A stretch of 64,000 bases of DNA from an uncultured cyanobacterium (GTDB lineage Bacteria; Cyanobacteriota; Cyanobacteriia; Cyanobacteriales; CAWUOF01), in the NCBI GenBank assembly GCA_963744145.1, contig CAVUSO010000001.1, positions 5,696,001 to 5,760,000 of the forward strand, read 5' to 3'. Of the stretch, positions 27,001 to 29,992 are shown in pieces (position 1 is the first letter of the stretch; every line of letters begins with the position of its first letter). The position numbers were made by a program.

Positions 27001-29992
27001 TTATCACTTTACATCAGGTTAAGTTATGATTAAAAAAAGAATAAAGGTCTTAATTTTATCTTTAATCATTGGGTTCTTTGGGGTGATTGGGTGTAATACA
27101 TTGCAACAGCAAACTACAAATAACCAAACCGCATTAAACCCACCAAAGCACAATAATAATGTCGTCATATTTATTGCTGATGGTTTACGAAGAGATGCGG
27201 TTAACCAAACAGATGCTCCTACGATTTTATCAATTAGAGAAAATGGAGTTGATTATGTTAATAGTCATTCCCTATTCCCGACTTTTACAACTCCTAATGC
27301 TTCAGCGATCGCGACGGGACATTATTTAGGAGATACCGGAGATTTTAGTAATAACCTTTATATTGACTCTCCTGTTGCTCATGCTGATCATAGTGTAATC
27401 CCGTTTATTGAAAATGATCCAATTATAGCAGATATAGATGAAAAATTTCCTAGTTTGAATTTCTTAGATGAAGAAACTTTACTAGCGATCGCGCGTCAAG
27501 CTGGATATAGTACCGCTGCGATCGGTAAACTCGGTCCGACTTTAATTCAAGATGTTACCCAAGGAAATCGAGTCAATGGCAATATTCTACCACCACAAAC
27601 CATTATTATTGATGATAGTACAGGTTCTAAAGGTGGAGTACCATTAAGCGCAGAGTTAACAGCAAAATTACCAACTGTAGGTTTACCTTTAGCGACAACT
27701 CCTCGTGATCAACCTCCGGGAAATAATCAAAAACCAGGAACTACTAAAGCTAATATTGGTCAGCAACAATATTTTGCCGATGTCACCACTAAAGTAATCC
27801 TACCCTTATTTAAAGAAAGGGGAAAGCCTTTTGTCATGGTATATTGGTCTCGTGATCCAGATGGAACTCAGCACAATCATGGAGATAGTTTAAATAGTCT
27901 GACTCCTGGGATTAATGGTCCGACCTCAAAAGCTGCAATTAAAAATGCAGATAATAACCTCAAGCAAATCATTGATGCTTTAAAAGATCAAGGTTTAACA
28001 AATACTACAGATATATTTGTTACCTCAGATCATGGATTTTCAACTATCAGTAAGCAATCTATAGATGCTAAAGGTAGTAAAACTAATAGCTATGCAGCAT
28101 CTCTTTCCTACCCTAATGTTAATGCTGGATTTCTCCCAAATGGTTTTGTTGCGATTGATCTAGCTAAAGCACTAAAGCAACCTTTATTTGATCCGAATCA
28201 GGTAATTACAACTTCAGCTAAAGAGGAAATAAAGTATACTCCTATTGATCCAACTAAAGGACAATCACTTAAATCGGGAAATGCTTTAATTGGTGGTACA
28301 GGGAAAATTACCAACAACAAAACTGATGCTCAAGTAGTCGTTGCAGCTAATGGAGGTTCAGATTTAATTTATTTACCTAGTGGAGATAAAAATCTCGCTA
28401 AAAAAATAGTAGATATTTTATCCCAACAAGATTATATTAGCGGGATTTTTGCTGATGATATTTTTGGGAAACTTCCTGGAGCATTACCTTTAAGTAGTGT
28501 GGGATTAAAAGGATCAGCACTGACTCCTATCCCTGGGATTGTTGTTAACTTTAGAACTTTTTCTCTAGATCCCAAAAATCCGCTTCTGAGTGGTATCCAA
28601 ATCGCTGATACAGGATTACAACAGGGACAGGGGATGCACGGTTCATTTAGTCGGGCAGATACCTACAATAATATGGCAGCGATCGGTCCTGATTTTAAGA
28701 AAAATTTTGTTAATCAAGCTCCTGTTAGTAACGCTGATATCGCAGTTACTCTAGCAAAGGTGCTTGGGTTACCAATTTCCAAGAAAGGAAATTTACTCGG
28801 TCGAATTAGTGAGGAATCTCTAGTAGGAGGACCAAATACCGTATCATCCTCTTCCGAAACTTTAAAATCCGATCCAGCAACTAATGGTTTATCAACTATT
28901 TTAAAATATCAAAAAGTTGGTAACAACAATTATTTTGATGTGGCAGGATTTCCCGATCGAACAGTTGGGTTATAAAAAATACCTGTGTATTGCAGTGGAA
29001 TTTATACCCCGCACAAGTTGACAAAGCTTTTGCACTGGCGAGTTACCGTTACTCTACAGACCCTTTTTGAGGTGGATCTGGTAGGAGTCGAACCTACAAT
29101 TCCCGCTGTTCAAGCGGATTGTGTGTAAGCTTTATCTGTCAGGGTGCGGGGAAAAATTATTACCTTAGACCTCTTGCAAAAGTCATGTTGATCAATTTAC
29201 TGGACAGGCAAGATGCCTGTCCCACAACCAAAAAAAACTCTTGTGGGACAGGCATCTTGCCTGTCCTAGTTATTTTTGCAAGAAGTCTATTCCAATAGTG
29301 AAAGAAAAATAGAGGAAGATGGAGGAATCGAACCCCTACAGAAACCCGTACCCTGGTTTTCAAGACCAGTCGCTGTCCATTCAGCGGCATCTTCCCTTGA
29401 GGGGTGTCTGACGGGACTCAAACCCGCTATTAACTAGCTTCACAGACTAGCGTCTCGATCGCTTCGACTTCAAACACCATCAGTGGATCTGGCGAGGGTT
29501 GAACTCGCAACCTCCTGTTTGCAAGACAGGCATTCTCCCATTAGAACTACAGACCCAAACCAAGACGGGAATGGTAGGAATTGAACCCACAACATCCGAG
29601 GTAGAAACTCGGCGCTCTATCCGATTGAGCTACATTCCCATCAACAATTGTGAAAATTTTTCAGTTCAGGCGATCGCGTAAGGGCGTGCAAGTTAGCAGA
29701 GCATTTTGCGTTTTCTCAGCTACTAGAGGGACTCCGCCGATGAGTTATTACACACTCTTTCAAGGATGGCTACTTCTAAGCCTACCTATCGGGTTCTTTG
29801 TACTCCCCATTGGCAAACGCGACCCGATATTTGATAGGGTTACTATTCCTCTCGTACTTAGTATGTAAGCTCTATCCTATTAGGGCACGCTGAGGACGCG
29901 ATCGCACTGATTACCAAACATGATCAAACGAATTTAACACACCTCCTTAAATCAAATTCAATTCACATAGTCCCGACAGGATTTGAACCTGC

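Follow-up and report, generated by a model that had tools for sequence, protein, structure and literature searches.

A structured RNA of a cyanobacterial tRNA array that copies the sarcin-ricin loop and the GTPase-associated centre, a probable Y RNA of a divergent Ro60 system

An RNA gene among tRNAs

The window analysed here is a 64,000-nucleotide stretch of the genome of an uncultured cyanobacterium, in which a conserved structured RNA of about 207 nt, named M2, is encoded on the minus strand of a long tRNA array (29684-29890). As the note of a genome-wide survey had stated, the gene lies between those of tRNA-Val(UAC) (29968-30039) and tRNA-Arg(UCU) (29564-29640) and is co-oriented with them; the 5′ end proposed there, 29879, was 11 nt short and left the closing stem's 5′ strand (29885-29890) outside. 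The covariance model R1 matches the element at 29680-29892 with 213.7 bits. The features of the window are the following.

29684..29890, minus strand: whole conserved M2 element; all 50 of 50 homologues match over q24-232 by BLAST
29885..29890, minus strand: P1 5′ strand GCGUGC, part of a shared end stem (the "bracket"), pairing with 29684-29689; compensatory changes in 5 of 6 pairs
29684..29689, minus strand: P1 3′ strand GCACGC, preceded by a conserved ACUU (29690-29693)
29869..29875, minus strand: P2 5′ strand (..GAGC), after which comes the conserved UUACAUAC; pairs with 29696-29702; helix 2 covariation
29841..29863, minus strand: sarcin-ricin loop (SRL) hairpin, core AGUACGAGAGGA at 29847-29858, stem UACUA/UAGUA; identity and invariance of the 12-mer
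29822..29840, minus strand: variable hairpin P4; compensatory changes in 6 of 6 pairs
29708..29820, minus strand: P5-enclosed domain, equivalent of 23S H42-H44; match to own 23S, Rfam LSU match, triple covariation and pair counts
29817-29820/29708-29711, minus strand: P5
29805-29808/29726-29729, minus strand: P6
29788-29792/29737-29741, minus strand: P7
29763-29787, minus strand: H43 of M2
29742-29757, minus strand: H44 of M2
29312..31612, minus strand: tRNA array containing M2, co-oriented; 10 tRNAs by ARAGORN, 11 by Rfam
30140..31093, minus strand: microbial-type PARG gene within the array; Pfam PF10021, E 1.4e-48
29007..29151, minus strand: second bracket RNA, with a tRNA/YrlA-like module and the T-arm GUAGGUUCGACUCCUAC; weak YrlA match
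31820..31848, minus strand: promoter-like site of the array, TTGACA and TAGTAT 17 nt apart, with tandem TGTAGTAT boxes overlapping it
31831-31838 and 31820-31827, minus strand: the tandem TGTAGTAT boxes of the array promoter, over TAGTAT

Near full-length matches to M2 are present in 117 of 401 genomes of the order that were searched, which upholds the survey's claim of conservation in many cyanobacteria; its remark that M2 lacks annotation in a RefSeq plasmid tells nothing, since RNA genes do not appear in the plasmid table on which it was based. Co-oriented tRNA arrays make up 79 of the 171 M2 loci, and they include PARG in 22 cases and NADAR in 15. In the arrays, tRNA genes stand on either side of M2 and no ORF follows it. 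Three decayed second copies have been found, in which the SRL sequence is mutated or lost and the 3′ part of the bracket is gone. A search of viral contigs with an SRL-plus-H43 pattern gave 0 matches, and M2 had no match at E<=1e-8 in the Anabaena/Nostoc PCC 7120 plasmid records of the plasmid collection.

Structure and likeness to 23S rRNA

The SRL and the GTPase-associated centre (GAC) are the rRNA elements on which translation factors dock. By sequence comparison, M2 copies the SRL and helices 42-44 of 23S rRNA, including a covarying tertiary base triple, and joins on one small scaffold two sites that are about 1600 nt apart in the 23S molecule. The survey was right in its anatomy, which sets an SRL hairpin beside a look-alike of H42-44 on one closing stem; to this are now added a further enclosing helix and a variable hairpin.

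The covariation described earlier is real, and appears even in alignment A1 (MAFFT, 50 sequences), which was made without fitting to a model: 89.3% of its cells are paired, and both sides have changed in 28 of 49 pairs, a count that none of 500 shuffles attains and that is 9-12 in slid controls. The model-fitted alignment A4 (99 distinct sequences) has 91.0% of its cells paired and two-sided changes in 32 of 49 pairs; here too 0 of 500 shuffles come up to the count, and the slid controls lie at 8-15. Single-sequence folding of M2 is not significant (z = -0.78), and a naive all-against-all pair scan was too noisy for use. Default RNAalifold paired the SRL core with the 3′ strand of H43, which is spurious, and a hand model guided by 23S homology was therefore used instead.

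The SRL part consists of a helix-closed bulged-G motif with a GAGA tetraloop (AGUACGAGAGGA), a 12-mer identical to that of 23S rRNA, which occurs four times in the 7.7-Mb genome, three times in the 23S genes and once in M2. It is invariant in 50 of 50 M2 homologues found by BLAST, and the invariance is unbiased for these loci only, since 80 of the loci were fetched by a pattern that required the 12-mer. The flanking stem is 93-96% paired, with compensatory changes in 2 of its 5 pairs.

The GAC part has an H42-like stem with a conserved internal loop, and an apparent H43/H44 three-way junction with the same invariant tertiary nucleotides as in 23S rRNA. Two sets of tertiary contacts are described for the E. 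coli GAC, 1071/1091/1100 and 1072/1092/1099 (PMC2952862), and the sequence of M2 is consistent with both. The equivalents of G1071, G1091 and C1100 are invariant in 96 of 96 M2 sequences, and those of 1072/1092/1099 are U/U/A in 90, C/C/G in 4 and mixed in 2, whereas the 23S rRNA of the same genome has C/C/G. All nucleotides of the GAC tertiary core are conserved. In 23S rRNA, A1067 and A1095 are universally conserved and contact factors and thiopeptides; this conservation is not found among the 96 M2 sequences, where the A1067 equivalent is A in 81, G in 13 and C in 2, and the A1095 equivalent is A in 89 and another base in 7. The variation at A1067 means that some factor or thiopeptide determinants are not retained in M2, and for this reason the idea of a thiopeptide decoy was downgraded.

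The likeness is also recovered by profile searches. Positions 86-166 of our own covariance model match the three 23S genes of the genome at 46.7 bits (C1:796754-796835, 1665020-1665101 and 6447022-6447103), the same three places that the survey had given from another model. In a search of 941 bases, the Rfam model of bacterial LSU rRNA matches 29737-29792 with its positions 1093-1148 (45.6 bits, E 2.5e-12), below its gathering score of 50, and it reaches 45.6-55.1 bits on the GAC part of M2 RNAs. The earlier statement that there is no Rfam hit at E<=1 thus holds for a 2.5-kb search but not for the 941-base one, and M2 belongs to no Rfam family as a whole, though its GAC part is matched by the LSU model. 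The Y_RNA and YrlA models of Rfam gave no match on M2 at E<=10 in the 2.5-kb search or at E<=1 in the 941-base search.

A Ro60-like protein and a shared end stem

Outside the arrays, M2 is found directly 3′ of a gene for a Ro60-like protein and 5′ of genes for KptA, an AAA ATPase, NADAR and ThiF-like proteins, in the order Ro60-like, M2, then KptA/AAA or unk280/ThiF, all on the strand of M2. The Ro60-like gene lies 18-2100 nt upstream in 35 of 58 informative non-array loci, and in many non-array loci M2 is 9-200 nt upstream of kptA or unk280. The AAA ATPase is encoded in the operon beside the vWA/MIDAS protein. The unk280 protein has no Pfam or NCBIfam match, and its AF2 model (pLDDT 45.8) is unusable.

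The neighbouring protein (P0011) is conserved, 477 aa long, and matches Ro60/Rsr in predicted fold and in sequence profile. Its AF2 model (pLDDT 91.7) is composed of helical repeats and a vWA domain, and the top Foldseek matches are TROVE 9kop, Ro60 1yvp, Rsr 2nvo and human Ro60, with TM 0.61-0.70 over 480-540 columns and E-values of 2e-11 to 2e-10 for 9kop, 1yvp, 2nvo and 9nen. The family profile finds human Ro60 in the PDB at E 1.5e-17; in the MIDAS, the D-x-S-x-S and the D are invariant and the T nearly so. A single-sequence Pfam scan of the protein gave no TROVE match. The predicted helical-repeat ring, the C-terminal vWA domain with its MIDAS and the homology to Ro60 identify a divergent Ro60 family in this order of cyanobacteria, annotated merely as "vWA domain protein" and present in about one third of its genomes.

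Among the 401 genomes, 114 have both M2 and the Ro60-like protein, 3 have M2 only, 31 the protein only and 253 neither, so that the protein is encoded in 114 of 117 M2-bearing genomes, a co-occurrence whose statistic is overstated because related genomes are not independent. The two genes are at most 20 kb apart in 47 of the 107 genomes with both coordinates listed; in the genome of the window they are not closely linked, being separated by 2.59 Mb.

A further link to Ro60 is the terminal bulged stem of M2 (5′ CGYGNCCYNAY...RAGCYUACAUAC / 3′ GCUY...ACUUGCRCG). The same bracket is carried by tRNA-like, YrlA-like and short hairpin RNAs that flank the Ro60-like gene, also at the Ro60 locus of the window's own genome, and the P2/UUACAUAC motif is common to M2 and these RNAs. 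The YrlA-like one beside the Ro60 gene matches RF02553 at 37.1 bits (E 1e-6 locally), and the second bracket RNA of the window matches it weakly at 29040-29099 (23.6 bits, E 0.02); the siblings thus score 23.6-37.1 bits, below the gathering score of 69. The Ro-binding motifs given by Chen et al. are GGUCCGA in animals and GNCGAAN0-1G in bacteria (PMC4201824). The end stem of M2 covaries, and its 5′ strand, G-N-C-C-Y-N-A-Y, is similar but not identical to these motifs; the bracket is most likely a Ro60-binding site.

M2 resembles the bacterial Y RNAs, such as YrlA (RF02553), as Chen et al. describe them (2014, PMC4201824), in several respects. Like them, it is a noncoding RNA whose gene has that of a Ro60 orthologue as a neighbour on the same strand, its 5′ and 3′ ends pair in a conserved stem, and part of the translation machinery is imitated by a module inside it; a locus holds several kinds of Y RNA, and RNA-repair genes are associated. 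It differs from them in that its module mimics 23S rRNA (H42-44 and SRL) and not tRNA, in its length (about 207 nt against the 80-130 nt of characterised Y RNAs), in an end-stem motif other than GNCGAAN0-1G, in its frequent location inside a tRNA array at a distance from the Ro60 gene, and in matching no Rfam Y RNA model.

M2 sits in an array of the kind described as TrcR-controlled long cyanobacterial tRNA arrays (PMC8421152, PMC10272220), and a term search of the main text of these two papers found no mention of non-tRNA RNA in the arrays. According to PMC10272220, the TGTAGTAT box is where footprinting places TrcR on the Anabaena trn operon, and at the array promoter of the window it likewise covers a TAGTAT −10 hexamer. 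Tandem TGTAGTAT boxes are also found upstream of the Ro60 operon of the genome (locus L174, 8008-8026). Predicted TrcR-type operators are shared by the array and the Ro60 operon, which suggests that M2 is probably made during translational stress. In Anabaena, the AAA gene all0263 is reported to be 24-fold up in a trcR mutant; the adjacent all0265 and all0266 are unrelated, and as a counterpart of the AAA ATPase of the Ro60 operon it was set aside and kept as a lead only.

Decoy, tether and other readings

Among the three roles offered by the survey's note, the Y-RNA-like one gains support from the Ro60-fold gene directly upstream in non-array loci, the co-occurrence in 114 of 117 genomes and the terminal stem shared with the bracket siblings; a decoy or a sensor role is more conjectural. 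The reading that we prefer, at a probability of roughly 0.6, is that M2 serves a cyanobacterial Ro60/Rsr system as a noncoding Y RNA, one of the class of RNAs that act with Ro60-type proteins when RNA is damaged, and presents a surrogate GTPase centre as a decoy. Its transcript would come from the Ro60-KptA-AAA-NADAR/ThiF operon or else from the long tRNA array, and Ro60 would most likely hold the bulged end stem, which the siblings beside its gene carry too. In the place of the tRNA-like module of known bacterial Y RNAs there would be a folded copy of the factor-binding site, whose effector module, the SRL with the H42-44 stalk base, would retain the tertiary base triples. The Ro60-M2 particle would display this surrogate, which may compete with ribosomes for agents that recognise or attack the factor-binding site; candidates are nucleases or glycosidases acting on the SRL and ADP-ribosyltransferases directed at the GAC. 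It may further be coupled to Ro60-linked RNA decay and to the adjacent enzymes of repair and de-ADP-ribosylation. Precedents are Tre23, which ADP-ribosylates 23S nucleotides 1095-1098 (PMC8661411), and YrlA's tRNA-like domain, for which competitive inhibition of an anticodon nuclease has been proposed (PMC7790460).

Rather than acting as a decoy or competitive inhibitor, M2 might be a tether, the H42-44 and SRL module binding uL11, the uL10-bL12 stalk, uL6 or translational GTPases and bringing them to Ro60 for storage, factor titration or ribosome quality control. We regard this as unlikely, though a serious contender. According to PMC4201824, Y RNA modules are established as tethers. Conservation extends over the GAC tertiary core and the internal loop of H42 but not to the factor-contacting A1067 equivalent, so that binding of a ribosomal protein fits better than binding of a factor or drug, and the AAA ATPase adjoining the vWA/MIDAS protein also speaks for a tether. 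The loci examined, however, hold no additional uL10, uL11 or GTPase genes, and contacts to uL6/uL3 are not known to require the absolute invariance seen in the GAGA loop.

It is improbable that M2 is a free-standing decoy or sensor of the tRNA array that works independently of Ro60, the two being linked only as parts of the same stress island. The 79 array loci with their PARG and NADAR genes would agree with this, as would the 2.59 Mb between M2 and the Ro60 gene in the window's genome; the bracket that M2 shares with RNAs flanking the Ro60 gene, the co-occurrence and the position 18-2100 nt downstream of that gene in 35 of 58 informative non-array loci are nevertheless hard to explain without a common partner. 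That kptA or unk280 follows M2 in many loci outside the arrays could point to a cis-acting leader, such as an autoregulatory mimic that binds a ribosomal protein and controls the gene after it, of the kind that exists in rRNA-mimicking leaders of ribosomal-protein operons, or else to an array-processing spacer. This is very improbable and was rejected, as M2 in the arrays is flanked on both sides by tRNA genes without a downstream ORF, and the same RNA with its closed terminal stem is retained in both contexts. Least probable of all, and rejected too, is the reading of M2 as a chimera of 23S rRNA fragments without function, which the local 23S similarity might suggest but which is contradicted by compensatory changes in 28-32 of 49 pairs, by full-length conservation in 117 of 401 genomes, by an H44 pair and tertiary partner that differ coordinately from the genome's own 23S rRNA, and by the different look of the true decayed copies.

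To our knowledge, the modules of bacterial Y RNAs known so far are tRNA-like only, and a literature search for rRNA-mimicking Y RNAs or small RNAs gave nothing relevant and no published description of M2. Small RNAs that reproduce a protein- or factor-binding site of rRNA exist as rRNA-mimicking leaders of ribosomal-protein operons and as "ribosome-in-pieces" oligonucleotides; these are cis mRNA segments or synthetic fragments, whereas M2 is a stand-alone gene joining two distant rRNA sites. A wider proposal, which goes beyond the preferred Y RNA reading and is tentative, with the odds somewhat against it, is that bacterial Y RNAs are modular mimics of the translation machinery of which M2 is the first rRNA-mimicking member, a stress-induced, Ro60-bound mini GTPase centre serving as a sentinel or a decoy against toxins and enzymes aimed at the factor-binding site, with the adjacent KptA, NADAR and PARG cleaning or reversing the damage. 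If so, Y RNAs would mimic several targets of translation-directed attack, and a single stress system would unite the cryptic cyanobacterial tRNA arrays, Ro60 and the NAD/ADP-ribose RNA-repair enzymes. M2 would also offer a natural, compact and well-folded SRL and GAC construct for biochemical and structural work.

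M2 and its tRNA array

The RNA gene M2 lies inside a tRNA array, where it is flanked by two tRNA genes and shares its strand with a PARG gene.

Features of the array in the window
29312-31612, minus strand: tRNA array, 10 tRNA genes by ARAGORN, 11 by Rfam at the gathering score
30140-31093, minus strand: PARG gene of the microbial type, embedded in the array on the strand of the tRNAs
29968-30039, minus strand: tRNA-Val(UAC), one flank of M2
29684-29890, minus strand: M2
29564-29640, minus strand: tRNA-Arg(UCU), other flank of M2

Alignments with homologues found by BLAST span 29890 to 29684 in 50/50 cases, and a covariance model places M2 at 29892-29680 on the minus strand. 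The 5' end proposed in the genome-wide survey's note was too short and left out the closing stem's 5' strand (29885-29890). HIP1 octamers (GCGATCGC) stand on either side of M2, at 29898-29905 and 29670-29677; they are a possible 8-bp extension of the closing stem in this genome only and are not conserved in the homologues. In several arrays (L005, L009, L010, L028, L037) a tRNA with a CUA anticodon, called tRNA-Pyl by ARAGORN, lies directly 5' of M2 and may be an amber-reading tRNA; in other arrays this slot holds tRNA-Arg(UCU). Elsewhere in the window, two adjoining SPFH/Band-7 (slipin-type) genes are found on the plus strand (21171-21995 and 22052-22873).

Of 401 genomes sampled within the order Cyanobacteriales, 117 have a near full-length match to M2, as do 11 of 151 in a sample of the phylum, one of these 11 being outside the order; the genomes surveyed are a mutually related sample. 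Scanning one genome per species with a pattern yields at least 121 loci; viral contigs have no match to this pattern. Among 80 loci with a title listed, every name is cyanobacterial apart from two "uncultured bacterium" records, and these two contigs recur among the genomes of the order (L059 = G022, L088 = G202). M2 is also present in two plasmid records.

Fold of M2 and its ribosomal look-alikes

The fold of the single sequence is uninformative (z = -0.78), and the default RNAalifold model was set aside as its pairs are partly spurious. The structure is therefore given as a 49-pair model, written using 23S homology and derived from the same sequences on which it was tested. It comprises a closing stem (P1), P2, a hairpin resembling the sarcin-ricin loop (SRL), a variable hairpin (P4) and P5, a helix around an H42-like stem (P6, internal loop, P7) and an H43/H44 junction. 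In a MAFFT alignment of the 50 BLAST-found sequences, which was not fitted to the model, 89.3% of cells are paired and 28 of the 49 pairs change on both sides (0/500 shuffles as high; slid controls 9-12). A model-based realignment of 100 loci with 99 distinct sequences, biased towards the model, gives 91.0% and 32 of 49 (0/500 shuffles as high; slid controls 8-15).

The 12-nt SRL core, AGUACGAGAGGA, is read exactly in M2 on the minus strand, and its four copies in the 7.7-Mb genome are three in 23S genes and the one in M2. It is unchanged in all 50 BLAST-found homologues, the set to which this count is confined, 80 further loci having been fetched by a pattern that demands the 12-mer. A 38-nt stretch of M2 is 87% identical to 23S helices 43-44, part of the GTPase-associated centre (GAC), and the Rfam bacterial LSU model matches the GAC part at 45.6 bits in the window and at 49.4-55.1 bits in three relatives (small search space in each case). 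The three 23S genes that the survey's covariance model had matched are also recovered, at the same coordinates, by the newly built one.

The equivalents of U1060, G1071, A1077, U1078, U1082, A1086-A1088, G1091 and C1100 are invariant in M2 or nearly so. In the Escherichia coli GAC, C1072/C1092 and a hydrogen bond between C1072 and G1099 form one set of tertiary contacts, and G1071/G1091 and G1071-C1100 another (PMC2952862). At the equivalents of 1072/1092/1099, 90 of 96 distinct M2 sequences have U/U/A, four C/C/G and two a mixture; the unbiased set of 50 has 46, four and none. As far as sequence can tell, this retention or covariation of contact positions points to selection that maintains the three-dimensional GAC fold as well as the helices. 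Because C/C/G is what stands in the genome's own 23S, M2 is not a recent copy. The equivalent of A1067 is variable (A 81, G 13, C 2).

What decay of M2 looks like is seen in Nostoc loci that carry a degenerate second copy ~1.5 kb from the intact gene. In all three the SRL is mutated, the 3' third is replaced and the closing stem is lost, its 3' strand being absent.

Decayed second copies of M2
L058:1250-1459
L067:4600-4808
L107:1255-1460

A Ro60 homologue and a family of bracketed RNAs

Gene context was taken from 171 M2 loci with 146 distinct M2 sequences (some genomes twice, 19 loci too short to judge), with counts limited by flanks of 1.5-5 kb. In 79 loci M2 has three or more co-oriented tRNA genes at a distance of up to 1.5 kb, with none nearby on the opposite strand; PARG is present in 22 of these array-type loci and NADAR in 15. 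The other informative loci are without tRNAs, and M2 sits within a conserved co-oriented operon, in which a ~477-aa protein ends 18-2100 nt upstream of it in 35 of 58 non-array loci. The 3' side is of two types, one with KptA/Tpt1 (16 loci) and an AAA ATPase (15 loci), the other with unk280, a ~280-aa protein of unknown kind (37 loci), and a ThiF-like protein (34 loci); NADAR occurs in some of these operons. In most Nostoc-type loci the gene immediately downstream of M2 codes for unk280 (276-282 aa, 77% mean column identity; 11997-12833 in L174, the Ro60 locus of the window's genome, and for example L044:5351-6199), and the ThiF-like E1-type protein comes next in every case. Neither Pfam nor NCBIfam has a match for unk280, for which AF2 gives no usable model (pLDDT 45.8).

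The 477-aa protein, annotated only as "vWA domain protein", is a Ro60 homologue. Its AF2 model (pLDDT 91.7) consists of a helical-repeat domain and a vWA domain, the best full-length PDB matches are TROVE/Ro60 proteins (9kop, 1yvp, 2nvo, 9nen, 9l5y), and a family profile detects human Ro60 (E 1.5e-17) and Rsr (3.4e-8); the Pfam TROVE model does not match it. Identity across the best 120 homologues listed is 81-95%, and those named are cyanobacterial. M2 and the Ro60-like gene occur together in 114 of the 401 genomes and both are missing from 253, with the Ro60-like gene alone in 31 and M2 alone in three, all draft assemblies, counts for which genome relatedness inflates any test. Among 107 genomes with both coordinates listed, the two are at most 20 kb apart in 47 and separated by over 1 Mb in four.

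The M2 covariance model gives ~30 further weak matches near M2, which are other small RNAs with its terminal bulged stem, the bracket (5' part YCGYGNCCYNAY, 4-6 nt, RAGCYUACAUAC; 3' part GCUY, 4-6 nt, ACUUGCRCG). These siblings share their ends and differ in the interior, which can be a tRNA-like module (scored at 48-55 bits within the bracket by the Rfam tRNA model), a permuted T-arm/D-arm module like that of YrlA (RF02553, 37.1 bits over a full-length alignment, below gathering) or almost nothing, in hairpins of 68-86 nt. They sit just upstream of the Ro60-like gene. In the window's genome, one tRNA-like and one short bracket RNA precede that gene, which is followed by genes for KptA, AAA, an unknown protein and a ThiF-like protein; M2 is absent from this locus.

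Ro60-like gene and second bracket RNA
C1:3136653-3138083: Ro60-like gene of the window's genome
29007-29151 of the window, minus strand: bracket RNA just beyond the array's last tRNA, with a YrlA/tRNA-like interior

The latter has a T-arm (GUAGGUUCGACUCCUAC), a D-arm-like element (GUAGAGUAACGGUAACUC) and a weak Rfam YrlA match (23.6 bits). Between it and tRNA-Ser lies a long perfect inverted repeat (GGACAGGCAAGAUGCCUGUCC..., 29195-29275) with many false Rfam microRNA matches and a terminator-like score on the plus strand, which may be a terminator or processing site. Several distinct same-strand Y RNAs beside Ro60, one tRNA-like and one a simple hairpin, are also on record for Salmonella, Mycobacterium and Deinococcus (PMC4201824).

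Proposed role and regulation

We rate M2 as a probable Y RNA whose module mimics rRNA and whose partner would be a divergent Ro60 family. The bracket would be the Ro60-binding stem, since all four RNA classes share it and no other element; published Ro-binding motifs are similar to it, though not identical. The M2 module would in turn present a surrogate of the ribosome's factor-binding site. Full-text literature searches returned nothing relevant on a Y RNA or small RNA that mimics rRNA, and term searches in the main text of the two array papers did not turn up 23S, an ncRNA or a non-tRNA gene of the arrays. Chen et al. (2014) found few YrlA RNAs in cyanobacteria, in a search set of genomes with a GenBank-annotated TROVE-domain protein (PMC4201824), from which a protein annotated as vWA only would be left out.

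The role we favour for such a Y RNA is that of a decoy or competitive inhibitor against agents recognising the SRL or GAC, because the neighbours KptA, NADAR and PARG act on RNA ends and on ADP-ribose adducts, the toxin Tre23 ADP-ribosylates nucleotides 1095-1098 of H44 (PMC8661411), and the YrlA domain that resembles a tRNA has been proposed to competitively inhibit an anticodon nuclease (PMC7790460). Its main rival within the Y RNA reading is a tether, by which M2 would hold uL11, uL10-bL12 or GTPases at Ro60. Conservation of the tertiary core together with variation at the A1067 equivalent fits tethering somewhat better than a decoy. A thiopeptide decoy is unlikely, as the A1067 equivalent varies.

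Two TGTAGTAT boxes, with 3 nt between them, overlap the promoter-like site of the array (31848-31820, minus strand; TTGACA, 17 nt, TAGTAT). This 8-mer has six copies in the window against 1.4 expected, a number that no shuffle reaches; the others are at 28002 and 32118 (minus) and 15830 and 59938 (plus). In the Anabaena trn array, the footprinted TrcR site is TGTAGTAT over a TAGTAT -10 box, and the array is silent until ribosome-targeting antibiotics lift TrcR repression (PMC10272220). In the window's genome, the Ro60 operon has a tandem TGTAGTAT/TGTAATAT pair ~345 nt upstream of its first Y RNA; one-mismatch matches show no overall enrichment at this locus, so that the tandem arrangement alone is suggestive. 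The published Anabaena TrcR regulon includes RtcB, a TIGR02452 protein, a slipin and an AAA ATPase. Together with the boxes at the array and the Ro60 operon, it makes it plausible that M2, Ro60 and regulon-type enzymes are co-regulated under translational stress; TIGR02452 we take to be a PARG-like family.
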